A stretch of DNA of 64,000 bases, taken from assembly GCA_030432655.1 (NCBI GenBank), contig JAUILA010000021.1:1-64000 (forward strand). The letters run 5' to 3'. The translations under genes were made by a program, and so were the position numbers. The DNA is from Bacteroidia bacterium (GTDB taxonomy: Bacteria > Bacteroidota > Bacteroidia > Cytophagales > Cyclobacteriaceae). The notes under the pieces were generated by a model. The model had not been told where the DNA came from, ran no database searches, and saw only the letters and a list, made by a program, of their open reading frames with translations. This document shows positions 7,287 to 52,749 of this stretch, piece by piece; position 1 is the stretch's first letter, and each line of letters starts with the position of its first letter.

Positions 7287-7346
7287 GATTAATCAGGTTT
7301 CCGGGGGTAAATCTACCTAATTTTAAAGGAATGACATGGGAGAATA

Positions 7347-7997
7347 ATGGCTGATACGATATTCCGGATTTTCCGTGAATCCGCTGACCCTGACCGGGCG
7401 CAGCAGATGGCAGCGTACATGAGAAATAAATTTGAATTCCTGGGCCTGATGCGGGCTGACAGGGACTTGCTGCAAAAGGAAGTGCTTCAATCAAAAAAGG
7501 CATTGCCTGCCGCGGACTGGGAATGGATCAGCCAGCTTTACGACCAGCCGGAACGTGAATTTCACATGCTCGCGGTGGATTATCTGCGGGCGATACGAAA
7601 GAAGCTTACGCCGGAAGATCTCCCAAAGATCGAGGCGCTGATCCGCCGTCATTCCTGGTGGGATTCGGTGGATGCGCTTTCCGATGTCGTTGGTACCCTG
7701 GTTAAAAAATATCCCTTTCTCCTCGGGGAAGCTCTGACGCGTTGGGTAACTGATGAAAATTTCTGGATACGACGCGCGGCGATTATCCATCAGCTGAAAT
7801 TTAAAGAGGAAACAGACAGGGAATTCCTGGAATTTGCCATTTCATCGAACCTGGGCTCAAAGGAATTTTTCATCAATAAAGCCATTGGATGGGCACTCCG
7901 GCAATACTCCAGGACAGATGCGGACTGGGTGCGTGAGTTCCTCACCAGGTATGATCTTGCCCCGCTGAGTGTCCGCGAAGCATCGAAATATATCTGA
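7347..7997 (+). CDS. DNA alkylation repair enzyme (AlkD-like HEAT-repeat family)
   Basis: 216 aa with the characteristic helical-repeat sequence of PF08713-like proteins. Confidence 0.65.
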   Translation: MADTIFRIFRESADPDRAQQMAAYMRNKFEFLGLMRADRDLLQKEVLQSKKALPAADWEWISQLYDQPEREFHMLAVDYLRAIRKKLTPEDLPKIEALIRRHSWWDSVDALSDVVGTLVKKYPFLLGEALTRWVTDENFWIRRAAIIHQLKFKEETDREFLEFAISSNLGSKEFFINKAIGWALRQYSRTDADWVREFLTRYDLAPLSVREASKYI

Positions 7998-8002
7998 GCG
8001 AA

Positions 8003-9679
8003 TTACATTTCACCAATTTTCAGCCTGCCATAATCAGCCACTGATTTGCGGGTCTCCTTGATAGCGGTTTTTACCACATCTGAACCGGAAAGATCTTCCA
8101 CGGTGCCTGCCACGTCCTCATAATAACTGGTCCAGGTCCGGATAATTTCCTCCTGATCCTTTTTGCTACCCCCTTCCTGCAGGATGTTCCTGCTTAATGC
8201 TGTTTCCGCATCAAGTCTGGTTTTTGCTGCCTGCTCAATTTCCCGGAGAATATTCAGCGCCAGCGCTTCGCCGCCTGATGCCAGCTCCATCACGCTGGTC
8301 ATCGTGCCCGCGACCACATTTCTCAAAGTCTCCTGTGAAACCTTATCGATCCGGTCCTGATCGGTATGATAGAACTGGTCGGTGAAATGCCAGAAGAGTA
8401 CCGAAGGAATATTTGCCCGTAAAAAAGGAACGTGATCACTACCCCCTTCAAACGGATTGGTATTGACGTTCCACTCACTCCGGGAAGCCTGGTTTGTGAA
8501 TTTTGATATGACAAAATCGTTCAGGTAATGAGGCTGGAGCTGGTCCTTTCCGATGGGAGATCCTCCCCATTCGGTATGTTTGTCGTTTCCGCGTGTCCAT
8601 ATGGCACTGGGGTCAGGCATCTTTTCAATCAGGAAGGACCCCCCGGTAACGGCTGTATTCTCCCCGACCATATCCAGGCTGAAACCCCACTTTATCTTTT
8701 CTCCATGTTCTTCCACATAGCGCCTGGTTGAAACGATTTCATCTCCCCACAAAAAAGTGATCGTTCTTTCCGGATCGTATTCTCCGCTTCGAACCAGTCC
8801 GGCCAGGTTCTCCGCAATTTCTGTAGCCGCCCCCACACCACTGGCGTTGTCATTGGCGCCAGGCTCCTGGACATGGGCACTCAGGACGACCTCTTCATCC
8901 GGATTTGATTTTCCGTGTATCTGAGCGACGATAGTGAGTTCATCCGAATCAATGAATTCAGTTTCAATACGCACGTGCACTTCTGAACCACCATTCTCCA
9001 GATACTCCTTTAATTGCTCATTGGCGGCATAGGACAGCGCGATGGACCAGGCTTCGCCTGAATCATTATAGGGAATACTGTTGAACTGAATGGAACGGCG
9101 GTTTGTCTCCGGTTCCAGGTAGGCGGGCATGCCATAGGTCATTATACCAAGCGCGCCAAATTCTCCGACAGCGGCATTAAACAGGTAATAGGGATGGATC
9201 TCGCCATAAACGATCTTCCCCCTGACATCTGCTGCGGCCAGGTCTTCCAGTTCCCGGATCCTGACGACCGGTGCCGTGATTCCTTCAGTCGGGGTGGAAC
9301 GGGAATTCACCGAGATCATGTTCCGGTTGTTGCTGTAATTCAATAAGAGCTCATTGTTACCGGCCAGGCTTACCTGCGCATCCACCGGGTGCCATGCCGG
9401 GTGGTCAAGTGGCCTTTTTTCAATCCGGTAGGTAAGCCGTGCATTGCTGTCTCCTTCCGGTACAAATCCCGCGTTTTTGAGTTTACCTACCACATAATAA
9501 ATGCTGGAATCAAAACCGGGATTTCCGGCGAGTCGCCAGAATTGTTCTACATAGGCAGTCACGTCATAAGCCGTTTCACCGGTGGCATGCTCGTTGGAAA
9601 GGTCAGCATAGCCTTTCTGGGCATGAGAGAGATAATTACCTGCAACGAGCAGCAAAAGAGTAATAAATAGGGTTCGCAT
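8003..9679 (-). CDS. M28 family peptidase with PA domain, secreted
   Basis: Signal peptide plus the HVQEPGANDNASGV M28 zinc-binding block. Confidence 0.75.
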   Translation of the reverse strand: MRTLFITLLLLVAGNYLSHAQKGYADLSNEHATGETAYDVTAYVEQFWRLAGNPGFDSSIYYVVGKLKNAGFVPEGDSNARLTYRIEKRPLDHPAWHPVDAQVSLAGNNELLLNYSNNRNMISVNSRSTPTEGITAPVVRIRELEDLAAADVRGKIVYGEIHPYYLFNAAVGEFGALGIMTYGMPAYLEPETNRRSIQFNSIPYNDSGEAWSIALSYAANEQLKEYLENGGSEVHVRIETEFIDSDELTIVAQIHGKSNPDEEVVLSAHVQEPGANDNASGVGAATEIAENLAGLVRSGEYDPERTITFLWGDEIVSTRRYVEEHGEKIKWGFSLDMVGENTAVTGGSFLIEKMPDPSAIWTRGNDKHTEWGGSPIGKDQLQPHYLNDFVISKFTNQASRSEWNVNTNPFEGGSDHVPFLRANIPSVLFWHFTDQFYHTDQDRIDKVSQETLRNVVAGTMTSVMELASGGEALALNILREIEQAAKTRLDAETALSRNILQEGGSKKDQEEIIRTWTSYYEDVAGTVEDLSGSDVVKTAIKETRKSVADYGRLKIGEM

Positions 9680-9682
9680 CGG

Positions 9683-10258
9683 TTAATTTTGAGTTTTTCC
9701 TTCTAAAACATTGACACCTGGCGGAACCGGGTTGCCTGACATTCGACGCATGATGATCAGCTGACCTGTGTGATAAATTGCGTCGGCGACCGGGCCGTTG
9801 ATGAGGTTCCAGTAGGGATAGCTTTGTTGAGGGAACTGGATGCTGAGTGCGTCCATATCTGGTTGTTGCTCCAGGAGTTCGTTACGCACCTCCTGCAACA
9901 TCATGAGAATTTCCGTTCGGATTTCTTCCGCATCTTTCGCGGAGGGGTCAACTGCCTGTACCGGCAGATTGCGGTGAGTATTGTAAATTACATTGACTAG
10001 CAGATAGATGTGGTCGAGCGTTTCCCGGCATGAACGGATGTCTTCTGCTGGCCTGAAAGCCAAATCCGCCTGTCGGAGCCCTTCCGTCGCCCACCTGAAC
10101 CGGAACCCCAGTCCGTCAATCATCCTGGCAGCCACCGAGTGGGCCGTGTACGAATCCGGGGTTTCTTCAATGGAACTGAAGGGGAGATCATCCTGGCCCT
10201 GAACAGCCTGGCTGAAAATCATAAGGATTGAATAAATGAATAATTGCCTGATAATCAT
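9683..10258 (-). CDS. DinB/YfiT-like superfamily protein, secreted
   Basis: 191 aa with signal peptide and a conserved His-containing helical-bundle pattern. Weak assignment. Confidence 0.35.
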   Translation of the reverse strand: MIIRQLFIYSILMIFSQAVQGQDDLPFSSIEETPDSYTAHSVAARMIDGLGFRFRWATEGLRQADLAFRPAEDIRSCRETLDHIYLLVNVIYNTHRNLPVQAVDPSAKDAEEIRTEILMMLQEVRNELLEQQPDMDALSIQFPQQSYPYWNLINGPVADAIYHTGQLIIMRRMSGNPVPPGVNVLEGKTQN

Positions 10259-20019: not shown

Positions 20020-20032
20020 CAGGAGGGGATGT

Positions 20033-20156
20033 ATGTACAGTTGGAGAATTGAGCATACAGCGTGCGTGGGTCAAAAAGTCTGTCATCCCCGTCTATGTAC
20101 AGTGGGAGAATTGAGCATACAGTGTGCGTGGGTCAAAAAGTCTGTCACCCCCGTCC
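20033..20156 (+). repeat. 62-bp tandem repeat, 2 copies (same family as 30367..30800)
   Basis: Unit atgtacagttggagaattgagcatacagtgtgcgtgggtcaaaaagtctgtcacccccgtct repeated at 20033 and 20095. Confidence 0.9.
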
Positions 20157-20354
20157 GGTAACCTGAACGAGTGATTGTCCCTCCAGACGGGGGTCTGGGA
20201 TCGGAGATCCCCGGTAAGCTGGAAGAGTACGATAGGAGGGGCGTAGCGTGGACGCTACGACCATCATTGGATTAAAGAGTAAGTCTCCGTAGCTGCTGGA
20301 TCTCGGGTTACACGACCTTCGGCCGTGTCCCCGAGATGACAGCGCATGAGTCCA
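20143..20354 (+). repeat. ~210-nt structured repeat element, copy A (putative structured RNA / MITE-like)
   Basis: About 93-95% identical to copies at 30786..30998 and 30999..31208. Contains nested perfect stems (cccccgtc...gacggggg, cgtagcg-tgga-cgctacg, ctcggg...cccgag). Confidence 0.7.
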
Positions 20355-20416
20355 TGTCCCCACGCCCTGTTTTTGTTCCCTGTCACCCCACGCCCTGTTC
20401 TTCTTCCCTGTCACCC
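20352..20416 (+). repeat. 27-bp tandem repeat x2 containing the ctgtcaccc core
   Basis: cacgccctgtttttgttccctgtcaccc followed by cacgccctgttcttcttccctgtcaccc. Confidence 0.7.
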
Positions 20417-20422
20417 GGATAT

Positions 20423-21211
20423 TTACTCCTTCTCCCCCTTCCGATCCATGGTTTTCATCAATAAGTCAAGTTTTTCTTCCAGGGCAATAATGCGTTCCTC
20501 GGTCCGTGATGGTGCCTTCATGTGTTCGCTGTAATAGGCCCGGACTTTCCAGATTTCCAGCAGGGCATTCCTGGAGTAATGCAGGATGTCAAAAGCCGGG
20601 TCGTCCGTTTTGAAGGTCAGGTTTTTGTTAATATCGCTCAACCGGCGTACGCGGATTGCATCATCTGTAATCAGCACATACAAGGTTCCCACTTCGAGCA
20701 TATCTTCCTTTCTAACCCGGTCACATAAAAGAATATCCTGATGGTGAATCCCGCAGTTTTCATATTCCATCTCCTTCCCGTCTACCTGGAAGGCCCGTGT
20801 TTTTTCAAACTGTGTGAATGGAAACTGGAAGGAAGGGAGGGAGTTGATAAAGTCTTTGTTCTTATGGCTTACAATATATTCGGTCATCTTATCGATCAGG
20901 ACCAGCGGGGTTTGTTCTTTGAGAAGATCCTTGTCAAGGATGACTTCACTTTCCGTCTTCGCCTTTCCACCTGCAGAGAATAGGTCAAACTTATATAATT
21001 CATTGATTGTGAGTTCTTTGGTGAGAAGGGCGTCAGTACTGATTTTAAAATGCTTCGCTATTTCTATGAGCGTATCTATTTTTGGTTCGGACCGGCCTTC
21101 TTCATAGGCTCCCACACTTGGTCGGGCTAAATTGAACAGCTGAGCAAAATCTGCCTGACTCATTTTCTTCACTGAACGTATTTTTTTGATGTTTTTCCCA
21201 ATTTTTGACAT
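20423..21211 (-). CDS. XRE-family HTH transcriptional regulator with LexA/cI-like S24 domain carrying substituted catalytic residues (Ser to Glu, Lys to Arg)
   Basis: N-terminal HTH_XRE (KKMSQADFAQLFNLARPSVGAYEEG). C-terminal region aligns to LexA VSGMSM...VKRL as VDGKEM...VRRL. Confidence 0.7.
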   Translation of the reverse strand: MSKIGKNIKKIRSVKKMSQADFAQLFNLARPSVGAYEEGRSEPKIDTLIEIAKHFKISTDALLTKELTINELYKFDLFSAGGKAKTESEVILDKDLLKEQTPLVLIDKMTEYIVSHKNKDFINSLPSFQFPFTQFEKTRAFQVDGKEMEYENCGIHHQDILLCDRVRKEDMLEVGTLYVLITDDAIRVRRLSDINKNLTFKTDDPAFDILHYSRNALLEIWKVRAYYSEHMKAPSRTEERIIALEEKLDLLMKTMDRKGEKE

Positions 21212-21450
21212 GTGAATATTTTTTTTCTTTTGTGTAACCTCTTAAGAACTAGTACGTAAATATAAGTAATTAGTTGCTCAAAAAAATAGCAATGACAAAA
21301 AAAGTAGCATTATTTAATTTTATTTATTACTTTTAGAATTAGATGCGAGGCTACATTCAGTATTAGTATACTTTTTATGATTTCCCTCGGGAGTCAAAAA
21401 TATAATTAATACTTTCAATCGATTTATTCACCTCTAACTCAAATCAACCT

Positions 21451-21852
21451 ATGAACGAATACTTCAAAAAAGTACGGGATTACCTGCTGGACCTAAACTA
21501 CAACATCAGCTATGAAGCTGAAACAGACGGTGTCATCGTCGTGGATGAACAAAGTGCAGGAGTGCAAAATCTGGTACTTGGGGTAGCAGACCCGATCCTG
21601 ATCATCGAACAGTTCATTCTGGAGATCAATGGCAACAGTGCAGAAATCTATCGCAGCCTTCTTCAGAAAAACCGCGACATCATCCATGGAGCCTTCGTGC
21701 TTGATGAAAGCGGCACCAAAGTGATTTTCCGGAATACCCTGGAACTTGAAAATCTTGACCTGAACGAACTGGAGGCGTCCTTTAATTCGCTCAGTCTGCT
21801 CCTAAGTGAGTACTCAAACGAACTAATCCAATTTTCTAAGAAAAAACAATAA
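21451..21852 (+). CDS. YbjN/YjfI-like small cytoplasmic protein (putative sensory-transduction regulator fold)
   Basis: 133 aa, acidic. Pattern resembles YbjN-like domain proteins. First gene of the pspA operon, 11 bp upstream of pspA. Confidence 0.4.
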   Translation: MNEYFKKVRDYLLDLNYNISYEAETDGVIVVDEQSAGVQNLVLGVADPILIIEQFILEINGNSAEIYRSLLQKNRDIIHGAFVLDESGTKVIFRNTLELENLDLNELEASFNSLSLLLSEYSNELIQFSKKKQ

Positions 21853-21862
21853 ACATACGATC

Positions 21863-22591
21863 ATGAAAATCTTTAAACGACTATTCAAAATCGGCCAGTC
21901 CGAGGCCCATGCAGCTATAAACAATCTTGAAGATCCCATTAAGCTGACCGAACAGGGTATCCGCGATATGAAGGAAGACCTTGATAAGGCGCTTAATTCA
22001 CTGGCCCAGGTGAAAGCCATGGCCATCCGTGCCCGAAAGGATGCGACCACCTACTCGGAAAAAGCGGAAGAGTATGAGGGAAAAGCGGTGACTTTGTTAA
22101 AGCGTGCTCAAAGTGGTGACATTGATTCATCCGAGGCAGACAGGCTGGCCACCGAAGCCCTTGCACAGAAAGATAATAATCTTCAGCACGCTTCCCGCGC
22201 ATTGGGAGAGCAGACGAAATACGAAGAATCAGTTGAAAAGCTTGAAAGCAATGTCAACCGGCTCAAGTCAACCATTAATCAGTGGGAGAATGAGTTGAAA
22301 ACACTCAAGGCACGCGTCAAAGTGAGTAACGCAACCAAGAATATCAACAAGCAAATGGCGCAGATCGATTCCACGGATACGATCTCCATGCTGGAACGAA
22401 TGAAGGATAAAGTTGCTCAGGAAGAAGCACTGGCCGAATCCTACGAAGAGATGGCCAACGAATCCAGAAGTATCGATGAGGAAATCGATCGTACCCTGGA
22501 GGAGTCCGGTAAATCCGACAAAGCCCGTGAACTGGAAGCTTTGAAGGAGAAACTTGGAATAAAAAAAGAGGACAGTTCTGACAAAGAATAA
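21863..22591 (+). CDS. pspA: PspA/IM30 (ESCRT-III-like) family protein
   Basis: 242 aa all-helical. Alignable with E. coli PspA over the full length (N-terminal amphipathic helix, coiled-coil hairpin). Confidence 0.85.
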   Translation: MKIFKRLFKIGQSEAHAAINNLEDPIKLTEQGIRDMKEDLDKALNSLAQVKAMAIRARKDATTYSEKAEEYEGKAVTLLKRAQSGDIDSSEADRLATEALAQKDNNLQHASRALGEQTKYEESVEKLESNVNRLKSTINQWENELKTLKARVKVSNATKNINKQMAQIDSTDTISMLERMKDKVAQEEALAESYEEMANESRSIDEEIDRTLEESGKSDKARELEALKEKLGIKKEDSSDKE

Positions 22592-22597
22592 TTAATC

Positions 22598-23221
22598 ATG
22601 GGCGAATTACTTGAGGCGGCACTTTCACCAGCAAACCTGGTGATTACAATCCTGGCGGTTTTTGTAGTGATCTACTGGATCACCGTGATCATCGGCCTGG
22701 TGGATGTCGACCTGTTTGATCTCGACTTAGATCTTGACATGGACGTCGATGCCGACGGAATTTCGGTCGGCTGGCTCAACTCGGCCCTTGCCTTTTTCAA
22801 CCTGGCACAGGTGCCCATCATGATCTTCCTGAGTTTCCTTATCATTCCGGCCTGGGGCCTGATACTAATCGTTAACAATGCATTAGGGATTGAATCCTTC
22901 CTGCCCGGATTGCTGGTACTTATTCCTGTATTCATCATCAGTTTGTTCATTGCCAAATTCATGACAATTCCCTTTGTGAAAATTTTTGGGAAAATGTCAG
23001 AGGAGAAGGAGAATGAAGTGGTCATTGGCAAAGTCTGCGAAGTTATTGTTCCCACGAGGGGCAGTAAAGTCGGACAGGCGCTTGTAACAACAAACGGGGC
23101 ACCCCTGCGACTGAATGTCTTTACAACAAAAGGCATCGAGTTGATCAAAGGGGATAAAGGCCTGGTCATTGAATACCAGAAAGAACGAAATATTTATTTA
23201 ATCGAACCTTATAACAATTAG
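22598..23221 (+). CDS. YqiJ/NfeD-like inner-membrane protein (TM N-terminus, acidic DLDLD stretch, C-terminal OB-fold)
   Basis: Multi-TM N-terminal half. C-terminal VIGKVCEVIVP...GQALVTTNGAPLRLNVFT...GDKGLVIEY resembles the NfeD OB-fold. Sits immediately upstream of a flotillin gene as in yqiJK. Confidence 0.6.
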   Translation: MGELLEAALSPANLVITILAVFVVIYWITVIIGLVDVDLFDLDLDLDMDVDADGISVGWLNSALAFFNLAQVPIMIFLSFLIIPAWGLILIVNNALGIESFLPGLLVLIPVFIISLFIAKFMTIPFVKIFGKMSEEKENEVVIGKVCEVIVPTRGSKVGQALVTTNGAPLRLNVFTTKGIELIKGDKGLVIEYQKERNIYLIEPYNN

Positions 23222-23223
23222 AA

Positions 23224-25395
23224 ATGGCAACAAATGTAACGATCGTTTTAATTCTGGTCGGCGTTATCCTCGTAATCGGGATATTGTCGCTCTTTATTAA
23301 AATGTATAGAAAAGCTGTCCAGGGCGAAGCACTCATCAGGACTGGTGTTGGCGATGCAAAAGTTTCATTCTCCGGAATATTTGTCATCCCGGTAATGCAC
23401 AAACTGGAGGTTATGGACATCACCCTCAAAACGGTCAATATATCGAGAATGGGGAAAGATGGTCTCATATGTAAAGACAATATGCGAGCCGATATCAAGG
23501 TGAGTTTCTTTATCCGTGTAAACAAAACCACGGAAGATGTAATTCATGTAGCACAGTCAATCGGATGTCAGCGCGCTTCGGATATTCAGCAACTTGAAAT
23601 GCTGTTTGACGCAAAATTCTCCGAGGCCTTAAAAACCGTAGGTAAGCACTTTGACTTTGTGGAACTCTATAATTCACGAAGCAAATTCAAGGAAAAGATC
23701 CTGGAAGAGATCGGTACGGACCTCAATGGCTATGTGCTGGATGATTGCGCCATAGATTATGTGGAGCAGACATCGATCCTTGATCTTAATGAACAAAATA
23801 TCCTTGACGCACAGGGTATCAAGAAGATCATTGACCTGACGGCCGCAGAAAAGGTGAAGTCCAACCTGATCGAGCGGGAAAAGGAAAAGACCATTAAGAA
23901 GCAGGACGTGGAGGCGCGCGAAACCATTCTCCAGCTGGAAAGGCAGCTTGCGGAGAAGGAAGAGCAGCAGAAACGTGAAATTGATAACATCAAGGCCCGT
24001 GAAGAAGCGGCGATTGCCAAGGTGCGTGAGGAGGAACGTCTCAAGTCCGAAAAAGCACGAATTACCACCGAGGAAGAACTTGGGGTAGCCGAGGAGAACA
24101 AACTCCGTCAGATCGTAGTGGCGCAGAAGAGTAAGGACAAAACGGAAGCGGTTGAAATGGAGCGTGTGGAACTTGCCCGTGCCCTGGAGGCAACCGAACG
24201 CGAGCGGGTGGTTGAGCTGGCGCAGATTGATAAGGAGAAGTCCCTCGAAGTGGAGCGCAGAAATATCCAGGAGGTTATCCGTGAGCGCGTGACCGTGGAG
24301 AAGGCAACAGTGGAAGAAGAGGAAAAGATCAAGGATACACGCGCGAAGGCTGAGGCTGATCGTAATAAGATGGTGGCGATTACGCTGGCCGAACAGAATG
24401 CCCAGGAGGCGCTTGTTAAAGAGATCAAATCGGCCGAAGCTGCCAAACAGTCGGCAGAACATCTTGCTGAAAAAGCGCTGGTGGATGCACAAGCGGAGAA
24501 ATCAGCGGCCGAACACCGCGCAGAAGCCATGAAGACCATGGCCGAAGCAGAAGCCGCTCAGAAAGCAGCTTTAGGTATGTCCGAGGCACAAGTCATGAAA
24601 GCCAAGGCAGAAGCACTCGAAGAGCAGGGTGAGTCGGAAGCCTCCGTGATCGAAATGAAAGCAGAAGCCGAAGCCAAAGGAATCCGGGCCAAGTCCAACG
24701 CGCAGGCGGAAGCCGAAGAGCGCCTCGGATTTACCGCAGCCAAGGTAAACCGGGAGAAAGGGCTTGCCAATGCCGAGGTGACGGAAGTTCAGGCAGCTGC
24801 CGACGAGAAGAAAGGCCTTGCCGACGCCAGGATCATGAAGGAGAAGTTCGCCGCGGATGCAGAAGGCATAAAAGCCAAAGCGGAAGCTATGAAACTCTTC
24901 GACGACCAGGGTATCCTTCACGAAGAGTTTAAGTTACAGCTTGAAAAAGACAGGACGATCGAACTTGCTCATTTCGACATTCAGAAGTATGTGGCAGAAG
25001 CACAGGCGAAAGTACTGGGAGAAGCATTCAAGGAAGCCAACATCGATATCATTGGTGGGGAGTCCATGTTCTTCAACCAGATCGCGGGCGCCATTGCCAA
25101 TGGTAAGTCGATCGACGGACTCGTCAATAACAGCAAAGTGCTGAGCGATATCCGCCATACCTTTTTAGGAAGTGAAGGCGGATCTGACTTCAAGCACAAG
25201 ATCGGTGAATTGCTTAAAAGCTTTAATGTGACCAGTGATGATGTGAAGAATCTCACCATTTCTGCGATCCTCTTTAAGCTCATGGGCAAAGCCGATAATG
25301 CCGACCTGAAGTCAAACCTTCAGCAAATGATGAGCATAGCCAAGTCTGCGGGACTCGATAAGGAGACCCCGAGATCATTGGGACTGGCCGTTTAA
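23224..25395 (+). CDS. flotillin-like SPFH/band-7 protein (YqiK/FloT-type) with long Ala/Glu/Lys-rich coiled coil
   Basis: N-terminal TM anchor, SPFH domain, about 350 aa of EA-rich heptads. Start is 3 nt after the upstream stop. Confidence 0.8.
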   Translation: MATNVTIVLILVGVILVIGILSLFIKMYRKAVQGEALIRTGVGDAKVSFSGIFVIPVMHKLEVMDITLKTVNISRMGKDGLICKDNMRADIKVSFFIRVNKTTEDVIHVAQSIGCQRASDIQQLEMLFDAKFSEALKTVGKHFDFVELYNSRSKFKEKILEEIGTDLNGYVLDDCAIDYVEQTSILDLNEQNILDAQGIKKIIDLTAAEKVKSNLIEREKEKTIKKQDVEARETILQLERQLAEKEEQQKREIDNIKAREEAAIAKVREEERLKSEKARITTEEELGVAEENKLRQIVVAQKSKDKTEAVEMERVELARALEATERERVVELAQIDKEKSLEVERRNIQEVIRERVTVEKATVEEEEKIKDTRAKAEADRNKMVAITLAEQNAQEALVKEIKSAEAAKQSAEHLAEKALVDAQAEKSAAEHRAEAMKTMAEAEAAQKAALGMSEAQVMKAKAEALEEQGESEASVIEMKAEAEAKGIRAKSNAQAEAEERLGFTAAKVNREKGLANAEVTEVQAAADEKKGLADARIMKEKFAADAEGIKAKAEAMKLFDDQGILHEEFKLQLEKDRTIELAHFDIQKYVAEAQAKVLGEAFKEANIDIIGGESMFFNQIAGAIANGKSIDGLVNNSKVLSDIRHTFLGSEGGSDFKHKIGELLKSFNVTSDDVKNLTISAILFKLMGKADNADLKSNLQQMMSIAKSAGLDKETPRSLGLAV

Positions 25396-25465
25396 CGGGC
25401 CAGCTGTATTAATCAAAACGCCCGGGAAGTTGGTCCCGGGCACTTAAACCCTACACCAGTAAAAT

Positions 25466-28400
25466 ATGAGCGATAAGGAAACTTTGTCGACGGGTGGAAA
25501 CTACGAGGTTCTGAAGTCACGCCTGAATGCAGCAGTTGAAGATTTGAAGTCTTCCCTCGCCGGCCTGAATGAGGCTAGGAAAGATACATTCGGCAATATA
25601 GAACAGAAGCTGGTTGCTACCGAACGGATCAGTACGCAGAATAATTGTGTTCCGAGGGATATGATAGCACTGGGCGATAAGCTCCTGTTTGGCTTTAATG
25701 TGCACATCGGGCTAAAAGCCCAGGTCAGTGTGTCCGATGTATTCTCCATCCACAAATATGAAGATCATGCTTTTCATGAACTGGATAATGCGCTTATCAG
25801 CGACGATCAGTTTGAAGATGATTTTCATAAGCTATATAAATACTACAAGGAAACCACCTTCGTGAAATTCGCGGTCCGCGGTCCTTACCTGTATATGATA
25901 TTCCGTATCGGCAAGGACGAAGAGGATATTAAGGCGTTCAAATGGCAGATCAATGCGGAAGGACTCACCTATATCGATAATCGCAGCGAGTACGAATTTT
26001 CCTATCCCGATCAGCATGAATTCTCCTGGAAAAAGACCACGCGTGACAATCAGCGTCAGGGTAAATTTCCCCATGTTTCCATTGAGGATAAGTTGTTCGT
26101 GGAAACAATAGGAGGTGACCTGACCATAAAGATAGAGGACAATACCGATAACGGTCATGGCATTTACAAGGAGGAAGTGGAGGATGCCGACCAGACCCTG
26201 GATGACAGTGAGATCTATTATGCAATTTACGGCAGCCTGATCCTGTTGAAAATCCGCCCCTACCGCGAAGAGGCATACCGTTACCTCGTGTATAACAGTA
26301 AGCTTCAGCAGGTGCGAAATATACCGTCAATCCGGGAAGCATGTATCTTTCTTCCGGACGACCAGGGTATTCTGTTCACAAATGGATATTACCTGCAATC
26401 CGGTGACTTCAAGGCGTTTGAACGCGACGAAGCCAATCTTAAGTACGAACTGACTATTGCCTCTCCCAATGGGGAGGATTATATGTATGTTTTCTACCAG
26501 CCCGGAATCGGTAATTACCTGTTGCTTCCATATAATATAATTCTCCGTCAGATCGGCACCCCGATATGGTGCCATGGATACGCGCTGTACCAGAACGGCG
26601 AATTGGCTTATTTCACGGCAGATGAGCAGCCAAAGAAGCATCATGTAGTGCGGATCTGGCAAACTTCATATACCGCTCCTGATTTTGAACTGACCCACAC
26701 CAACAATTCTTACCTGTCAAAAGTCGGTAACAAAGATATCGTACGAGCGATGGCGGAATGTCAGGAGATCATTACACTTACGGAGAAAGGAGAGGATTAT
26801 GATGGTTTGTATATTGATCTGTCAAGACAGGCGACAGATGTTATCGACTCCTATTACTGGCTGGATCATGACGAGGCGTTTAATGTAAAAAGTCCGCTGG
26901 AAAATATCCGGCAGTCAGCGAATGCCGCCATTGATGAATTTGACAAAGTAGTCAGGATCCGGAAGGAAACCGGCCAGCGTACGAAAGCTGTTTTTGACGA
27001 GGGGTCCTCACATATTAAGAAAACATCCCGCGAAAGCGGACAATCCCTTGATACGTATGTGGCTCACCTGACTACGTTCAGAAAACTGATGGGGGAAACG
27101 GAAGGCTTGCGTCAGTTGCGGTTTGCAGATGAGGAAGCGGTGGATAAACAGCTTGCGGAATTGAAACAGGCCAGTGAGAGTTACGCGGCATCCTGCGTAC
27201 GGTATCTTCTTCGCCCTGAATCGCTCGAGCCTTACGAAAAACGTATTGACGAATTAGCGGCTCGGATTGATGAGGTGAAAAAGGTGACCGAGGCCAAGGA
27301 ATTGCAGGAGAATATTAATCAGACAGGTAAGGATCTGGAGATGCTGATCGACGTGGTGAGTAATCTTAAAATTGAAGATGCCACACAAACGACAGAGATC
27401 ATTGAAAATATTTCAGCACTTTTCGCGAGGGTTAACCAGCAAAGGGCCCGGCTGAAAAAGCACAGGCAGAATCTGTCGCGGGAGGAATCCAAGGCAGAGT
27501 TTGTGGTCCAGATGAAACTGGTTGATCAAAGCCTCACCAATTACCTGGATCTGTGCGATACACCGGCCCGTTGCGAGGAATACCTTTCAAAGCTGTTAAT
27601 CCAGATTGAGGAGATGGAGAGCCGTTTCGGAGATTTTGAGGACTTCTTTTCTGATATTGCCGATAAACGGGAGATGGTGGTCGATGCCTTTGAATCCCGC
27701 AAGAATGTGATTAATGAAGAGCTCGGTAGAAAGCGTCAGAGCCTTTTTCAGTCCGGTAAGCGAATACTTCAAAGTATAGAAAACCGCGTCTTGAAAATGA
27801 ATGACGCCGCCGAAATTCAGGCCTATTTCACTGCGGATTTAATGATTGAGAAAGTTCGGTCCACCATTGAAAAATTGCGTGAAATTGATGATCCGGTTAA
27901 AGCGGATGATCTGGCTGGACAGCTTAAATCATTACGGGAAGACGCTTACAGGCAATTGTCGGACAGGCAGGATCTGTATGCCGGAGATGATGATATAATT
28001 AAATTCGGCAATTTCCAGTTTTCCATTAATTCGCAGCAACTTGAATTGTCCATTATTCCACGGAATGAATCACTCTATTTCTACCTGGGCGGCACAAATT
28101 TTTACGAAAAAGTCAATGACGAATTTCTGGAGAATAACAAGGAAATATGGGACCAGGTCTATCAGTCCGAATCGCCGGATGTATACCGGGCGGAGTTTCT
28201 TGCCTATTCACTTTTCCAGCAATGGCGGATCCAGGGCAATGAAGTATTAAGTGACATTGAAGCGATGGAGGATCAGGATCTGCTGGAACGGATCCGGAAG
28301 GAAATGTCCACCCGGTTCAACGAAGGATACGCGAAAGGCATTCATGATGAAGATACCCTGAAGATCCTGAAGGCAATTTTCTCATTTTACTCAGCAGGGG

Positions 28401-30310
28401 GGACGCTGATCTACCCGGCGGATATCCGTGCGGAAGCAATGAAATTCTGGTTTTTCACCCTCGATGAGGGTTCCAGGAAAAAATGGAACGACAGGATCAA
28501 GGGTCTTGGATTAATTTATTCCGTTTTTAATAATCCTGCGATTTATGCGGAAACCTGCGCGCTCCTTTTACCACTGATTACAGAATCGTCGCGTGATTCC
28601 TTAACCCGCAGTCAGTATGAAGAGGTGACCCGTTACCTTGTGGAAGAAATGGCGGTGGAAACCACCTTCATCTTGTCTGCAGAAGCAGCGGCAACCGGCG
28701 TTAATTTCAAGGCAGCCCTGAAGAAAAGAAAGGCAGTAAAGACCTTTGAAGAATCGCTCAGGAAAGCGGGTGAAACACCTGCAGAACAATTTGCCATGGT
28801 GTGCGAATGGTTAAGGGTTTTTAGTAATCCGGAAGAACGTGAGTTTATGCAGGAAGCCGCTTTGTACATATTAATGGAAGATGTTTTCAGGGTGTCTGAT
28901 ACCGTTATGAAACACCAGATTGGCGGAATGAAGGGAACACATCCGAAGATCAGTGACCAGAATGAATTGGCGTTGAACTTTAATAATTATTTCAAGCGCC
29001 TTTTAGACTATACAACAGGTACTTTACCGGCGTTCCGTGAATTTCAGCACCGGAAGCAGGAAAAGGTAAAAACGTTTTCCGACGAACTTCGGCTGGATTC
29101 CTTTAAGCCAAAAGTCATGAGCAGTTTTGTGCGAAACAAACTGATTAATGATGTCTATCTTCCCCTCATAGGTGCCAACCTGGCCAAGCAAATTGGGGAG
29201 GCCGGAGCCAATCAGCGAACAGATCTGATGGGACTATTGCTGTTGATCTCTCCGCCCGGCTATGGCAAGACTACGCTTATGGAATATATTGCCAACCGCC
29301 TGGGGCTTATATTTATGAAAATTAACGGTCCGGCCATTGGTCACGATGTTACTTCCGTTGATCCGGGAGAAGCGTCAAGTGCCACTGCCCGCCAGGAGCT
29401 GGAAAAGCTGAACCTGGCTTTTGAAATGGGCGATAATATTATGATATACCTGGATGACATCCAGCACGTGAGCCCCGAATTTTTGCAGAAGTTCATTTCG
29501 CTTTGTGATGCCCAGCGGAAAATTGAAGGTGTTTATAAAGGTAAAACCCGCACCTATGATTTTCGCGGTAAGAAGGTTTGTGTGGTAATGGCAGGCAACC
29601 CCTACACCGAGAGCGGTGAGAAGTTTGCTATACCTGATATGCTGGCTAACCGGGCCGACATCTATAATCTTGGCGACATCATTGGTGATTCCTCCCATGC
29701 TTTCAAATTGAGTTACATCGAGAACTGTATCACGAGTAACCAGACCCTTAATAGCCTGGCCGGTAAAAGCCGCGAGGATATCTATGCACTGATCAAGTCT
29801 GCAGAAGACGGAACGGCAGCCGACACCCTCACCGGCAACTATTCTCCAGATGAAATTTCAGATTACCTCAAAGTATTTAAAATGCTTCTGAAGGTCCGGG
29901 ATGTCATCATGACCGTCAATAACGAATACGTTCGCTCAGCAGCACAAGCAGATGAATTCCGGACTGAACCTCCGTTTAAACTGCAAGGTTCTTATCGCGA
30001 CATGAATAAGATCGCGGAAAAAGTATTTCCGGTCATGAATGAAGACGAGTTGAATATTATCCTGTCGGATCATTATGAGAATGAAGCGCAGTCACTCACC
30101 CGCGGGGCTGAATTTAACCTGCTTAAATACAACCAGCTGACTGATCAGCTGACCGACGAAAACCGGAAACGATGGGATTATATAACCAGTGTCTTTATGA
30201 AACAGCAAAAGCAGAAAGGATACGGGGATAATTCAACGGCGATGCTCGTGGAGAATATGGAAGAAATCAGTGACGGGATTCGTGAGATTGGAAAGGCATT
30301 GAAGAAATGA
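25466..30310 (+). CDS. giant (1614 aa) protein with C-terminal MoxR-like AAA+ ATPase module; N-terminal ~1200 aa of unknown function (beta-rich region + long coiled coil)
   Basis: Walker A LISPPGYGKTT (about 29245), Walker B IMIYLDDIQH, sensor block VVMAGNPYTESGEKFAIPDMLANRAD (compare MoxR ATQNP...LDRF). No recognisable N-terminal domain. Confidence 0.75.
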   Translation: MSDKETLSTGGNYEVLKSRLNAAVEDLKSSLAGLNEARKDTFGNIEQKLVATERISTQNNCVPRDMIALGDKLLFGFNVHIGLKAQVSVSDVFSIHKYEDHAFHELDNALISDDQFEDDFHKLYKYYKETTFVKFAVRGPYLYMIFRIGKDEEDIKAFKWQINAEGLTYIDNRSEYEFSYPDQHEFSWKKTTRDNQRQGKFPHVSIEDKLFVETIGGDLTIKIEDNTDNGHGIYKEEVEDADQTLDDSEIYYAIYGSLILLKIRPYREEAYRYLVYNSKLQQVRNIPSIREACIFLPDDQGILFTNGYYLQSGDFKAFERDEANLKYELTIASPNGEDYMYVFYQPGIGNYLLLPYNIILRQIGTPIWCHGYALYQNGELAYFTADEQPKKHHVVRIWQTSYTAPDFELTHTNNSYLSKVGNKDIVRAMAECQEIITLTEKGEDYDGLYIDLSRQATDVIDSYYWLDHDEAFNVKSPLENIRQSANAAIDEFDKVVRIRKETGQRTKAVFDEGSSHIKKTSRESGQSLDTYVAHLTTFRKLMGETEGLRQLRFADEEAVDKQLAELKQASESYAASCVRYLLRPESLEPYEKRIDELAARIDEVKKVTEAKELQENINQTGKDLEMLIDVVSNLKIEDATQTTEIIENISALFARVNQQRARLKKHRQNLSREESKAEFVVQMKLVDQSLTNYLDLCDTPARCEEYLSKLLIQIEEMESRFGDFEDFFSDIADKREMVVDAFESRKNVINEELGRKRQSLFQSGKRILQSIENRVLKMNDAAEIQAYFTADLMIEKVRSTIEKLREIDDPVKADDLAGQLKSLREDAYRQLSDRQDLYAGDDDIIKFGNFQFSINSQQLELSIIPRNESLYFYLGGTNFYEKVNDEFLENNKEIWDQVYQSESPDVYRAEFLAYSLFQQWRIQGNEVLSDIEAMEDQDLLERIRKEMSTRFNEGYAKGIHDEDTLKILKAIFSFYSAGGTLIYPADIRAEAMKFWFFTLDEGSRKKWNDRIKGLGLIYSVFNNPAIYAETCALLLPLITESSRDSLTRSQYEEVTRYLVEEMAVETTFILSAEAAATGVNFKAALKKRKAVKTFEESLRKAGETPAEQFAMVCEWLRVFSNPEEREFMQEAALYILMEDVFRVSDTVMKHQIGGMKGTHPKISDQNELALNFNNYFKRLLDYTTGTLPAFREFQHRKQEKVKTFSDELRLDSFKPKVMSSFVRNKLINDVYLPLIGANLAKQIGEAGANQRTDLMGLLLLISPPGYGKTTLMEYIANRLGLIFMKINGPAIGHDVTSVDPGEASSATARQELEKLNLAFEMGDNIMIYLDDIQHVSPEFLQKFISLCDAQRKIEGVYKGKTRTYDFRGKKVCVVMAGNPYTESGEKFAIPDMLANRADIYNLGDIIGDSSHAFKLSYIENCITSNQTLNSLAGKSREDIYALIKSAEDGTAADTLTGNYSPDEISDYLKVFKMLLKVRDVIMTVNNEYVRSAAQADEFRTEPPFKLQGSYRDMNKIAEKVFPVMNEDELNIILSDHYENEAQSLTRGAEFNLLKYNQLTDQLTDENRKRWDYITSVFMKQQKQKGYGDNSTAMLVENMEEISDGIREIGKALKK

Positions 30311-30323
30311 CAGCATGGCGGAT

Positions 30324-30347
30324 GGTCGGAGCGTCCACGCTCCGACC
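30324..30347 (+). terminator. perfect 10-bp stem-loop immediately after the giant gene stop (no U-tract)
   Basis: ggtcggagcg-tcca-cgctccgacc, 14 nt downstream of the TGA. Confidence 0.4.
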
Positions 30348-30366
30348 AACAGTCCCTGTCACCCCT

Positions 30367-30800
30367 ATGTACAGTTGGAGAATTGAGCATACAGTGGGCG
30401 TGAGTAAAAAAGTCTGTCACCCCCGTCTATGGACAGTTGGAGAATTGAGCATACAGTGTGCGTGGGTTAAAAAGTCTGTCACCCCCGCCTATGGACAGTT
30501 GGAGAATTGAGCATACAGTGCGTGTGAGTAAAAAAGTCTGTCACCCCCGTCTATGTACAGTTGGAGAATTGAGCATACAGTGTGCGTGGGTTAAAAAGTC
30601 TGTCACCCCCGTCTATGTACAGTTGGAGAATTGAGCAAACAGTGGGCGTGAGTAAAAAAGTCTGTCACCCCCGTCTATGTACAGTTGGAGAATTGAGCAT
30701 ACAGTGTGCGTGAGTAAAAAAGTCTGTCACCCCCGTCTATGTACAGTTTGAGAATTGAGCATACTGTGTGCGTGGGTCAAAAAGTCTGTCACCCCCGTCC
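30367..30800 (+). repeat. 62-bp tandem repeat array, 7 copies, two alternating unit variants
   Basis: Copies start at 30367, 30429, 30491, 30553, 30615, 30677 and 30739. Variants differ at gtgggcgtgagtaaaaaa versus gtgtgcgtgggttaaaaa. No unique spacers. Confidence 0.9.
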
Positions 30801-30998
30801 GGTAACCTGAACGAGTGATTGTCCCTCCAGACGGGGGTCTGGGATCGGCAGATCGCCGGTAAGCTGGAAGAGTACGATAGGAGGGGCGTAGCGTGGACGC
30901 TACCACCATCATTGGATTAAAGAATACGTCTCCGTAGCTGCTGGATCTCGGGTTACACGACCTTCGGTCGCATCCCCGAGATGACAGCACGTGAGTAC
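30786..30998 (+). repeat. ~210-nt structured repeat element, copy B
   Basis: See copy A. Has a register-shifted hairpin, cggc-agatc-gccg, where the other copies have gggatc...gatccc. Confidence 0.7.
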
Positions 30999-31208
30999 CT
31001 GTCACCCCCGTCCGAAAATCTGAGCGAGTGCTTGTCTCTCCAGACGGGGGTCTGGGATCGGTAGATCCCCGGTAAGCTGGAAGAGTACGATAGGAGGGGC
31101 GTAGCGTGGACGCTACGACCATCATTGGATTAAAGAATACGTCTCCGTAGCTGCTGGATCGCGGGTTACTCGACCTTCGGTCGCATCCCCGAGATGGCAG
31201 AGAATGAG
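30999..31208 (+). repeat. ~210-nt structured repeat element, copy C (overlaps the annotated ltaE ATG)
   Basis: Tandem to copy B. The element's terminal ccccgagatgRcag supplies the ATG at 31194. Confidence 0.7.
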
Positions 31209-32268: not shown

Positions 32269-32445
32269 TTAGTAGGTTCGGTCCCGCACATGTACAAGGT
32301 AATAAACAATGGCCGCCGCGAAGATAAGGGCGAAAATTGTCCATAAGATCTTATTGGTTTCGCTAAGCCGGGTATTCTTATTCCATACATCGTAAATAAC
32401 CCAGACAGCGCAGGCAATTCCCAGTAACCAGATTAATTTAGACAT
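32269..32445 (-). CDS. PLDc_N-like small membrane protein (58 aa)
   Basis: Not in the supplied track. MSKLIWLLGIACAVWVIYDVWNKNTRLSETNKILWTIFALIFAAAIVYYLVHVRDRTY matches the PLD N-terminal small-protein pattern (xIxDV...K.LW......P..G.I.Y). Its ATG overlaps the stop of the upstream EamA gene (ATGTCTAA). Confidence 0.5.
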   Translation of the reverse strand: MSKLIWLLGIACAVWVIYDVWNKNTRLSETNKILWTIFALIFAAAIVYYLVHVRDRTY

Positions 32446-33320
32446 TCTTATTTCGTTTGCTCACTAAATAAACACCTGCCATGATAATCAGCGCATAAAT
32501 CACAGTCAGCAAATCAAGCTGATCTTCACCGGCAGCAAGGGCAACAATGGTTGCGAATACAGGCTGAAGATAAATAAAAATGCCGACAACCGAAGAATCA
32601 ACATAGTTGAGTGCCCAGGCATTAAGCAGGTAGACGACAAACGTAGCGGCAAGTACCACATATCCCAGGCTCCACCAGGTAAGATCCGGAAATGATGACC
32701 AGTCCGCTGAGAACACCTGCTGCAACCCAACCGGAACCATCATAAGCGCCCCATAAAGAAATACCCACTTCAGCACGGTGGCATGATGATAAGTCCGCAT
32801 AAGTGGTTTTACCAGTACCAGGTAGGTGGCATAAGTGATGCCGTTAAGCAGAATGAATAAGTCTCCTGTAAACGTACCATTCTCCAGCGAAACACCCCCT
32901 TTGGTAAGCAGCAGAAGCACACCGGCCAACCCGACAAGCACACCTGTGATCTTCATCATCGTCAGTCGTTCATGCCTGAGAAAAGCCGCCACCATCAACA
33001 CCGCAATCGGGGTGGTGGTCATGATCAGGGATGCGTGGATGGGCGTGGTGAGGCTAAGCCCTTTGAAATAGAAGAACTGGTTGATCGCCGTGCCGAAAAA
33101 GGCGCAGCGAATAAGCAACCAGTGATCACGACGCCTGACTTTCTCAGTGGGAAAAGTCCGCGCAACCATCCAGAACAACAAGGTGGAAACCGAAACGCGC
33201 ATTACCACGAACGCCAGCGGCAGGAGATACTCCGGCACCACATATTTCGCAATAGTATAATTCGCCCCGTAAATAAGCGTGACTAGCAAAAGGGCAAGGT
33301 AAACCAGGGCGGTACGCGGC
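32438..33320 (-). CDS. EamA/DMT family transporter
   Basis: 10-TM protein with two EamA-type repeats. Likely start is MPRTALVYLALLL at 33320, since the long ORF N-terminus is not protein-like. Confidence 0.7.
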
Positions 33321-33379
33321 ATAGGTAAAACTATAGATTGCACATGGAAAATCTTACCTTTACAGGGTAAATTACAACT

Positions 33380-34648
33380 ATGTTTGAAACATCCCGCCCC
33401 CTTGCCGAAAGAATGCGTCCCTCCCGTCTCGAAGACCTGATTGGTCAGGAACATCTGACAGGGGAACAGGGAGTGCTGAGGCGTGCGATTCGCGCGGGTA
33501 GTATTCCCTCCATGATCCTTTGGGGACCTCCCGGGGTGGGAAAAACAACTATGGCAAATATCATTGCCAATGAGCTCAAGATCCCGTTTTATACCCTGAG
33601 TGCGGTAAGCGCAGGTGTCAAGGACGTACGGGAGGTTATCCAAAAGGCCCAGCGGCAGCAACATGCCATTTTATTTATCGATGAGATCCACCGTTTTAAT
33701 AAGTCTCAGCAGGATGCACTGCTCGGTGCTGTAGAAAAAGGGATCATTACGCTGATAGGTGCTACGACGGAAAATCCATCCTTTGAAGTAAATGCCGCCC
33801 TGCTCAGCAGGTGTCAGGTGTATACCTTAAAATCCCTGTCAAAGGAGGACCTGCTGTCCCTGATGGACCACGCCCTGCAGAGTGACCCTGAACTGAAGAA
33901 AAAGAAAGTCAATATAAAGGAGAATGAGGCATTGCTTTCCATCAGCGGGGGAGATGCGCGAAAGCTGCTGAACCTGCTGGACCTGGTGGTCAGCCATCTG
34001 CCGGGTGATGATGTGGAAGTGACCAATGAGGAGGTGAAACGAATCGCCCAGCAGCGTGTGGCGATATATGATAAAAGCGGTGAACAACACTATGATATTA
34101 TTTCTGCATTTATCAAATCCATTCGGGGAAGCGACCCCAACGCCGGATTGTACTACCTGGCACGGATGATCGAAGGGGGGGAGGATGTGAAATTCATCGC
34201 CCGCCGCCTGCTTATACTGGCCTCGGAAGACATCGGTAATGCCAATCCGACCGCCCTGGTGATTGCGACAAGTACATTTCAGGCGGTGACAATGATCGGA
34301 TACCCCGAAGCTGAGATTATACTTTCTCAATGCGTCGTTTATCTGGCGTGCTCGCCAAAGAGTAATGCAAGTTATAAGGCTATTAAGAAAGCCAGGGGGC
34401 TCGTGAAAGAAACCGGCGACCTGCCGGTACCGCTGGCAATTCGTAACGCACCCACCAAATTAATGAAGGATATCGGGTACGGAAAAGGGTATCAGTATGC
34501 CCATGATTTTCCGGGGAATTTTGTCCACACAGAGTTCCTTCCCGAGGCCATTTCAGGCACCAAAATCTACGATCCGGGAGAAAACCCCCGGGAGGCCGAA
34601 ATGCGCAAGAAAATGCGGCAATTCTGGAAGGAAAAATACGGTTATTAG
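33380..34648 (+). CDS. rarA: replication-associated recombination protein A (AAA+ ATPase)
   Basis: GPPGVGKTT Walker A. Full-length RarA/MgsA-like, including the C-terminal MgsA domains. Confidence 0.9.
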   Translation: MFETSRPLAERMRPSRLEDLIGQEHLTGEQGVLRRAIRAGSIPSMILWGPPGVGKTTMANIIANELKIPFYTLSAVSAGVKDVREVIQKAQRQQHAILFIDEIHRFNKSQQDALLGAVEKGIITLIGATTENPSFEVNAALLSRCQVYTLKSLSKEDLLSLMDHALQSDPELKKKKVNIKENEALLSISGGDARKLLNLLDLVVSHLPGDDVEVTNEEVKRIAQQRVAIYDKSGEQHYDIISAFIKSIRGSDPNAGLYYLARMIEGGEDVKFIARRLLILASEDIGNANPTALVIATSTFQAVTMIGYPEAEIILSQCVVYLACSPKSNASYKAIKKARGLVKETGDLPVPLAIRNAPTKLMKDIGYGKGYQYAHDFPGNFVHTEFLPEAISGTKIYDPGENPREAEMRKKMRQFWKEKYGY

Positions 34649-47610: not shown

Positions 47611-47695
47611 AGAGGAGTGGCAGAGTGGTCGAATGCGGCGGTCTTGAAAACCGTTGTACCGCGAGGTACCGGGGGTTCGAATCCCTCCTCCTCTG
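47611..47695 (+). tRNA. tRNA-Ser (anticodon TGA)
   Basis: Hand-folded. Acceptor agaggag/ctcctct. Anticodon loop cTTGAaa. Long variable arm gtacc...ggtac. T-loop ttcgaat. Discriminator G. No encoded CCA. Confidence 0.85.
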
Positions 47696-47921
47696 CATAG
47701 TGATCCCCTAAGTAGCTAATAGTCAGTTATTTAGGGGATTTATTATTTGTTGTGGGGCGAATTGTGGGGCGAAATTAAGTTCTAGTATTACTCAGAATAT
47801 GCCCTATTATAATTATCTCAGAGCAAGCAATGAACTTATTTATAAGTACAAATAAAAAACTTTAATGGCTAGATTATATTGTCATAGCTGACGATAGGAA
47901 GCTATTGTTGTAAAAGTGTAT

Positions 47922-49941: not shown

Positions 49942-50144
49942 TGTTTTAAGTTACGAATTTGTGAAGTGGTTTCTATTTCTTCACATTGGGTACAAGTCTG
50001 TGTAGACAAAATATGCCACACATGAGGCAATAAAAAGCTAAACGTAGCAATTTCTGCTAAAATTCTCAACCTAAAATAGGCAATAAAATGTTTCTTCTTT
50101 TAAGTTCCTACTGCGTCATTGTTCAATACATTCCTAAAAAAAAG

Positions 50145-51654: not shown

Positions 51655-51694
51655 TTTCCTTAACTGTGAACGAAGTGAACAGTCCTTCCGTAGG

Positions 51695-52600: not shown

Positions 52601-52749
52601 GTTTTTATTTTTAAAATCGTTTGTAGCACCTGCTACCTTGCTACCATTGCCTCTTTGTAGTAAGGTGTAGCAGGTCATTTATTTTATCCTTACTACAGGT
52701 AACTATCTTATATTCAGTAGTATATATTGATTGTAGCATGGTAGCAGGG

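Follow-up and report, generated by a model that had tools for sequence, protein, structure and literature searches.

A conserved NfeD-like, flotillin and giant AAA+ gene triad joined to PspA in a Bacteroidia genome: a candidate membrane-maintenance operon

Introduction

A role in organising or repairing membranes is ascribed to the flotillins of bacteria and also to PspA. To our knowledge, no dedicated ATPase remodels either of them in bacteria, unlike the ESCRT-III of eukaryotes and archaea, which has Vps4. Here, we analysed a 64,000-nt stretch of a Bacteroidia bacterium of the family Cyclobacteriaceae (assembly GCA_030432655.1, contig JAUILA010000021.1, positions 1 to 64,000; hereafter the window), in which a six-gene locus encodes PspA, an NfeD-like membrane protein, a flotillin and a 1614-aa AAA+ protein (hereafter the giant), together with a small CesT-like protein and a divergently transcribed regulator (Table 1).

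An operon class of this kind has already been described by comparative genomics (Ravi, Aravind, Gennaro and co-authors, mSystems 2024; PMC11237479, section 19). Its Table S3 lists a Dokdonia donghaensis example (ANH61663.1) with the same gene order, including the divergent 'cHTH+Protease' gene. The same study reported that abbreviated flotillin-YqiJ-AAA+ operons are more widespread, and raised ESCRT-like analogies for the associations between PspA and AAA+ proteins. The initial annotation of the window, which knew of no giant AAA+ partner for PspA, had missed this description. The pairing of SPFH2 proteins with NfeD in operons is likewise established (PMC2636767), and E. coli yqiJK and B. subtilis yuaFG(floT) both encode a homologous SPFH2 flotillin and NfeD-like pair in the order seen here. 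However, E. coli yqiJK has no adjacent giant AAA+ gene, pspA or regulator, and the flotillin of the window is 170 aa longer than YqiK, with a conserved C-terminal extension. In E. coli yjfIJ(KLMC), the gene for YjfI, a CesT/Tir-like protein, directly precedes that for the PspA paralog YjfJ, as in the window, and the two are treated as a core dyad (PMC11237479), whereas the polyamine-related genes YjfK/L/M/C are absent from our locus.

The best experimental precedent for a step from flotillin to PspA is the B. subtilis pspA-ydjGHI operon, which encodes an SPFH protein and PspA together, as the window does; as cited in PMC10936438, the recruitment of PspA to the membrane depends on the SPFH protein YdjI (PMC8581546). 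That operon differs in its SPFH subfamily and its membrane partners YdjG/H, and it has no AAA+ ATPase. A pairing of SPFH proteins with an AAA+ protein has its precedent in HflK/C-FtsH (PMC2636767, PMC10936438), where HflK/C organises the AAA+ protease FtsH, and SPFH proteins are established as builders of large cages or scaffolds on membranes. Both ESCRT-III/Vps4 and HflK/C-FtsH couple a membrane polymer or cage to an AAA+ machine. According to literature cited in PMC10936438, PspA belongs to the ESCRT-III superfamily and flotillin to the SPFH superfamily, but the giant lacks an MIT domain, a protease domain and transmembrane (TM) segments, and the likeness to these two systems would be functional only.

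Compared with the Dokdonia class, all six genes of the locus agree in identity, order and orientation, with no architectural difference; the locus is an ortholog in another Cytophagia-like genome. We found each feature of the published class: a CesT-superfamily gene immediately upstream of pspA with a 10-nt spacer, a multi-TM protein of the YqiJ/YuaF type, a flotillin, an AAA+ protein with a β-propeller and coiled coil, and a divergent cHTH+S24 gene. The locus therefore joins an operon class that is known from comparative genomics but not from experiments, and its six-gene layout is not new. What we add is the quantified synteny over more than 80 loci, the degeneracy of the S24 domain, the structure-based placement of the AAA+ core and a composite operon on plasmid pQBR103. 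The giant is an obvious candidate for the ATPase in question, being tied to flotillin and NfeD across at least ten phyla and joined to PspA at least twice independently. Since this idea already stands in the literature as a comparative-genomics prediction, we present the locus as a compact example with a corrected annotation rather than as a discovery.

Conservation of the operon across genomes

To quantify gene neighbourhoods, we collected 80 loci from species genomes whose giants are 42-52% identical over their full length. The set covers Bacteroidota, Planctomycetota, Verrucomicrobiota, Desulfobacterota, Clostridia, Kiritimatiellota, Omnitrophota and Chitinispirillaceae; it was analysed by tblastn, open reading frame (ORF) clustering and family hidden Markov models (HMMs), and the denominators count loci with enough upstream sequence. 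In 63 of the 67 informative loci, from at least eight phyla (28/30 in Bacteroidota and 35/37 in the other phyla), the gene immediately before the giant gene, on its own strand, encoded a flotillin, and a YqiJ-like gene preceded the flotillin gene in 59/64 loci. Among the Bacteroidota, PspA was encoded in 22/28 loci, a CesT-like gene stood directly upstream of pspA in 20/28, and a regulator homolog occupied the same divergent position in 20/28. The CesT-like gene and the regulator were absent from all 34 non-Bacteroidota loci of the set. No other conserved neighbour family was found in the 80 loci besides these five. Because flotillin and the YqiJ-like protein accompany the giant throughout and the PspA group is confined to Bacteroidota in this set, the conserved core is the triad of NfeD-like protein, flotillin and giant AAA+ protein, and PspA is a lineage-specific accessory. 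The dyad of CesT-like protein and PspA, together with the divergent repressor, was added upstream of this core in Bacteroidota. The giant without positional linkage to pspA, flotillin or NfeD genes, which the initial annotation had named as the pattern that would speak against its proposal, was not what these counts revealed.

The triad is also kept at 37-39% giant identity in Streptomyces, in Deinococcus and on pQBR103, a megaplasmid of P. fluorescens SBW25 (NC_009444.1, 84437-97641; locus L088). On pQBR103, an operon of YjfI, PspA, rhomboid, DUF2491, DUF350, DUF1190 and glutathionylspermidine synthase genes is followed directly by the triad. This arrangement is a second, independent join of the triad to PspA.

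Separately, we observed that in other genomes (loci L005, L011, L014, L031, L032, L045, L066 and L074) small unrelated genes have repeatedly settled between flotillin and giant, which makes this spacer a hot spot. By eye, their products resemble DUF559-like endonucleases, GxxExxY-type proteins, a Y1-transposase-like protein and a ParE-like toxin.

The giant AAA+ protein

Pfam detected DUF3686 (9e-181, residues 26-464), DUF7902 (7e-30, residues 586-668) and a weak AAA match (1.2e-7, residues 1258-1378) in the giant. The protein is soluble, with no TM segment by hydropathy. Its domains follow the order N-terminal helix, β-propeller-like DUF3686 domain, long coiled coil, helical domain and AAA+ module; the propeller-like fold of the N-terminal domain comes from a structural model, and helices run through residues 416-519. 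DUF7902 falls inside the long helical and coiled-coil middle part of the protein. Walker A (GPPGYGKTT), Walker B (YLDDIQ), sensor-1 N1378 and box VII R1396 are invariant in 15 giant homologs. The core has the AAA+ fold with a pre-sensor-1 β-hairpin, and it is structurally nearer to MoxR/Hsp100/dynein-type modules than to Vps4. MoxR AAA+ systems have a VWA-domain protein gene as their partner; no VWA domain was found in the locus by Pfam or among the conserved neighbour families of the 80 loci.

A PDB profile search with the giant returned a P-loop match alone. Neither a protease domain nor an MIT domain is present, and Pfam domain scans detected no nuclease or DNA-binding domain. The family is large, with more than 4698 proteins at E<1e-5 and, for the N-terminal 700 residues alone, 286 clusters (50% identity, E<=1e-30); nearly all full-length members have 1600-1900 aa. 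Literature searches for DUF3686, PF12458 and DUF7902 returned no paper, and none with experiments on the giant.

The YqiJ-like protein and the flotillin

Pfam and NCBIfam gave no match to either the 207-aa or the 723-aa protein even at E<=10, the Band_7 and Flot models remaining silent, and PDB sequence and profile searches with the flotillin returned only marginal coiled-coil matches to flotillin-2 and QmcA. As these searches were uninformative, we set both identities through E. coli yqiJK. In BLASTP, the 207-aa protein was 27% identical to YqiJ over 190 aa, and the 723-aa protein was 31% identical to the flotillin YqiK over 457 aa (E=5e-46). Similarly, the family HMMs matched YqiJ at E=3e-13 and YqiK at 1.5e-69, values which, like those given below for PspA, YjfJ and YjfI, were computed on a five-sequence database. 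The silence of Pfam and NCBIfam on these two families is an annotation blind spot, which spans 22598-25395 in the window and 7204-10001 in the corresponding locus (L085) of its nearest relative, GCA_964563925.1.

The YqiJ-like protein has about three TM segments (hydropathy segments 4-42, 62-99 and 94-131) and a C-terminal soluble β-rich domain. The flotillin carries an N-terminal TM segment (residues 1-30, hydropathy), an SPFH domain, a long Ala/Glu-rich coiled coil and a C-terminal extension. This extension (about residues 570-723) lies outside the BLAST alignment with YqiK and contains columns conserved in 14 sequences from several phyla. We consider the extension of the giant-linked flotillins a candidate docking site.

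PspA, the CesT-like protein and the regulator

The PspA protein matched Pfam PspA_IM30 at E=3.5e-40, and its family HMM found E. coli PspA (1.5e-13) and YjfJ (3e-11). A C-terminal LxxLKxK[LM]G motif is conserved. We considered this LxxLKxKLG motif as an MIM-like docking peptide and rejected it, since the same motif is present in E. coli PspA and is not operon-specific. The small protein encoded before pspA is acidic (22 acidic versus 11 basic residues) and belongs to the CesT_Tir_1/YbjN branch (Pfam CesT_Tir_1 1.5e-56, YbjN 1.1e-7, CesT 7.8e-6), its family profile matching E. coli YjfI weakly (1e-4). With regard to the canonical Psp system (PspF-PspABC), no Sigma54_activat-type regulator, PspB or PspC was found in the six genes and ten flanking genes, small ORFs elsewhere being unscanned; the absence of PspB, PspC and PspF had been pointed out in the initial annotation.

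The regulator combines an N-terminal Cro/C1-type helix-turn-helix (HTH) domain (Pfam HTH_3 4e-10) with a Peptidase_S24 domain (7.7e-8) and a C-terminal coiled-coil tail. LexA/cI repressors cleave themselves with a Ser-Lys dyad, which this regulator lacks. When aligned with E. coli LexA, it has Glu in place of Ser119 and Arg in place of Lys156. Across the 21 family members, Glu was found at the Ser site in 16 and Arg at the Lys site in 18, and the catalytic pair (LexA S119/K156) was present in 0/21. These substitutions make it a pseudo-protease, for which LexA-like self-cleavage is unlikely. All gene identities proposed earlier for the locus, the pseudo-S24 assignment included, were verified by Pfam, alignment and family HMMs.

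Proposed function and alternative explanations

Building on the observed gene identities, domain anatomy, intact ATPase motifs and conserved synteny, we somewhat favour a reading in which the locus is a module for maintaining or remodelling the cytoplasmic membrane, where the giant, driven by ATP, would remodel or organise a flotillin/NfeD scaffold to which PspA is recruited. In this model, the flotillin, through its N-terminal TM segment, and the NfeD-like partner would build an oligomeric scaffold or cage at the inner membrane face. The CesT-like chaperone would keep PspA soluble until, by analogy with YdjI in B. subtilis, PspA is recruited to the flotillin scaffold and polymerises on damaged membrane. 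The giant might dock through its propeller and coiled-coil arm and use ATP to assemble, remodel or recycle assemblies of flotillin, and perhaps of PspA. The non-cleavable regulator would keep both promoters silent until its degenerate S24 domain senses a signal. More specifically, and only tentatively, the giant could be the energy-consuming partner of flotillin, performing ATP-driven assembly or disassembly of flotillin/NfeD cages and, in Bacteroidota and on some Pseudomonas plasmids, also recycling PspA as a non-homologous analogue of Vps4.

Several observations weigh against this model. PspA was absent from 34/34 non-Bacteroidota loci of the synteny set and is therefore no obligate substrate of the giant. 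The giant gene is solitary, with only unrelated genes around it, in 4/67 loci, and no alternative partner was found in these four. The distance between flotillin and giant genes varies widely, from -11 to 2731 nt, sometimes with unrelated genes inside, so that in some lineages a separate promoter may drive the giant gene. Scans for sigma-70 promoters and intrinsic terminators performed no better than on shuffled sequence and were uninformative, a failure that is expected of the sigma-70 scan given the promoters of Bacteroidota. Moreover, Walker B of the giant reads DD instead of DE, and the position of pore loop 1 (KINGPAIGH) has no aromatic residue, which together argue against a classical threading unfoldase of the Vps4/ClpB type; as judged from its motifs, the giant is a predicted active NTPase but no obvious threading unfoldase. 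Finally, two directions of action are conceivable: the scaffold may be the substrate of the AAA+ protein, or it may serve only to hold the AAA+ protein in place for other clients.

The last possibility is the main rival, and it fits the same synteny data equally well. Here, flotillin and NfeD would recruit or enclose the giant at the membrane, the giant would extract or hold other clients such as damaged membrane proteins, and PspA would seal the bilayer separately. We regard it as possible at a probability of roughly one chance in four, since HflK/C-FtsH, and likewise the prohibitin/m-AAA protease, provide a precedent and β-propeller and coiled-coil domains are typical of client-binding or adaptor modules, although the giant has neither a protease domain nor a TM segment and no conserved client gene was found in its neighbourhood. 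It is doubtful that the giant is chiefly a disassemblase of the ESCRT-III-like PspA, a reading along the lines of the Vps4 analogy in the initial annotation. PspA and the giant do share an operon in most of the Bacteroidota loci and on pQBR103, and ESCRT-like analogies were drawn in PMC11237479, but the phyletic pattern of PspA, the non-aromatic pore loop and the DD Walker B speak against it, and the giant has neither an N-terminal MIT domain nor an aromatic pore loop in a classical-clade AAA core. The analogy is thus weaker than a reading centred on flotillin and NfeD, PspA not being the conserved partner of the giant.

A role in anti-phage defence or abortive infection, in a possibly mobile module with the flanking repeats as its borders, is improbable. 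The flanking direct repeats are real, the regulator resembles the HTH regulators of defence loci, and the module occurs in differing contexts in distant genomes and on large plasmids. However, PADLOC 2.0 identified no defence system and returned only generic HTH matches for the regulator and P-loop matches at E>1e-3 for the giant, and no phage homologs were found; nothing supports the abortive-infection role suggested initially. In addition, the neighbours are housekeeping genes, L085 has the same context without repeats, and the tRNA, integrase and low GC of a true integrative element present in the window are all missing from the locus. It is still less credible that the giant is a DNA repair enzyme which happens to neighbour membrane genes. 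The databases name it 'DNA repair ATPase', as both the Pfam description of DUF3686 and the NCBI product name do, and weak matches to RuvB exist, but these cover the P-loop only (about 45 residues), no nuclease or DNA-binding domain accompanies them, and the adjacency to flotillin across phyla is incompatible with a chance neighbourhood. The name, which has no support here, is probably misleading. Returning to the favoured membrane-maintenance model, what the giant AAA+ protein does to flotillin and PspA is an attractive and testable question.

Locus layout and genomic context

All six ORFs (20423-30310) were confirmed where the initial annotation had placed them. The regulator is transcribed divergently, and the five genes at 21451-30310 all lie on the + strand, separated by non-coding spacers of 10, 6, 2 and 70 nt; the gaps of 11, 7, 3 and 71 bp reported before were start-minus-end differences, each one too high. 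The earlier view of the unit as self-contained and operon-like is supported. GC content is typical across the locus except in the divergent intergenic region, which is AT-rich (about 26% GC) and is the presumed site of promoter and operator. A conserved palindromic operator was not found in the 21 intergenic regions between regulator and CesT-like genes, which gave A/T runs and clade-specific matches. The GC-rich hairpin beyond the giant gene has no T-run and is a possible terminator or transcript-end structure.

Table 1. Features of the locus and of an island elsewhere in the window (window coordinates)
Feature	Coordinates	Strand	Evidence
Regulator, HTH + pseudo-S24, 262 aa	20423-21211	-	Pfam, LexA alignment
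Divergent intergenic region, 239 nt	21212-21450	.	Sequence, GC content
CesT/Tir-like (YbjN/YjfI-like) chaperone-type protein, 133 aa	21451-21852	+	Pfam
PspA/IM30 (ESCRT-III superfamily) protein, 242 aa	21863-22591	+	Pfam, family HMM
YqiJ/YuaF-type (NfeD-like) membrane protein, 207 aa	22598-23221	+	YqiJ alignment, family HMM
YqiK-type flotillin (SPFH2), 723 aa	23224-25395	+	YqiK BLASTP, family HMM
Giant AAA+ protein, 1614 aa	25466-30310	+	Pfam, motifs
Giant, DUF3686 region, residues 26-464	25541-26857	+	Long helix, then β-propeller-like domain
Giant, DUF7902 segment, residues 586-668	27221-27469	+	Pfam PF25472 7e-30
Giant, AAA+ ATPase core, about residues 1245-1420	29198-29725	+	Motifs
GC-rich hairpin (possible terminator), 27 nt	30321-30347	+	Inverted-repeat arm GATGGTCGGAGCGTCCACGCTCCGACC, 10 nt past the giant stop codon
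BsuBI/PstI-type restriction endonuclease	47922-48941	-	
C5 DNA methylase	48910-49941	-	
MobA/VirD2 relaxase	50145-51329	-	
Tyrosine integrase	56747-58237	-	

The locus is flanked by repeats. Units of 62 nt occur in tandem, with two copies at 20032-20155 and seven at 30365-30799, and a unit of about 213 nt occurs once at 20141-20342 and twice at 30786-31200, with about 95% identity between its copies, which are all oriented alike. The larger unit is highly structured (minus-strand fold z=-3.8). A 28-nt tandem repeat (20358-20416) lies within the upstream repeat stretch. Within the window, the repeat family occurs on the two flanks (around 20020-20422 and 30311-31193) and nowhere else; the repeats had no Rfam match, and two metagenome scans with the 213-nt core were empty. 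They may be a repetitive extragenic palindromic (REP) or miniature inverted-repeat transposable element (MITE)-like element, or encode a small RNA. Short-read contigs that carry the giant gene in identical form end within the first of the 62-nt units, as expected of a multi-copy repeat.

The window neighbours are housekeeping genes, namely cydAB and those for a symporter, an outer membrane protein (OMP), threonine aldolase, EamA and MgsA. They are not conserved beside the module in the 80 distant loci. The L085 locus, whose giant is 75% identical, shares all six genes and their chromosomal surroundings (cydB, symporter, OMP, module, threonine aldolase, EamA, MgsA and a PKD protein) and has no copy of the repeat. 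Because the module sits in this context without repeats, the repeats are intergenic fillers specific to a lineage and do not mark the borders of a mobile unit; the initial annotation was thus right that copies of one repeat surround the unit, but these do not delimit it. Its suggestion that the module may have moved horizontally also finds no hallmark at the locus, where the neighbours are housekeeping genes, GC is typical and the same site is occupied in L085. Over long evolutionary distances, the triad may have spread horizontally, which would fit the differing contexts, its presence on megaplasmids and the high identity between phyla.

Two differences in L085 were seen in passing: an extra sulfatase gene between symporter and OMP (L085 2207-4081), and a 245-aa gene between giant and threonine aldolase (L085 15003-15740), where the window has the downstream repeat array.

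Elsewhere in the window, a tRNA-Ser(tga) gene (47611-47696) is followed by a low-GC island (0.34-0.46; 47611-58237 with the tRNA) that carries a Toprim protein and a VapE-like protein in addition to the four genes in Table 1. The island resembles an integrative mobilizable element that has integrated at the tRNA, and the locus, which has no tRNA, integrase or low GC, is unlike it. Lastly, the EamA ORF (32438-33664, - strand) overlaps the MgsA/RarA ORF (33380-34648, + strand) by 285 nt in the mechanical ORF calls. As the L085 homolog of EamA has only 291 aa, the start called at 33664 probably lies too far upstream.

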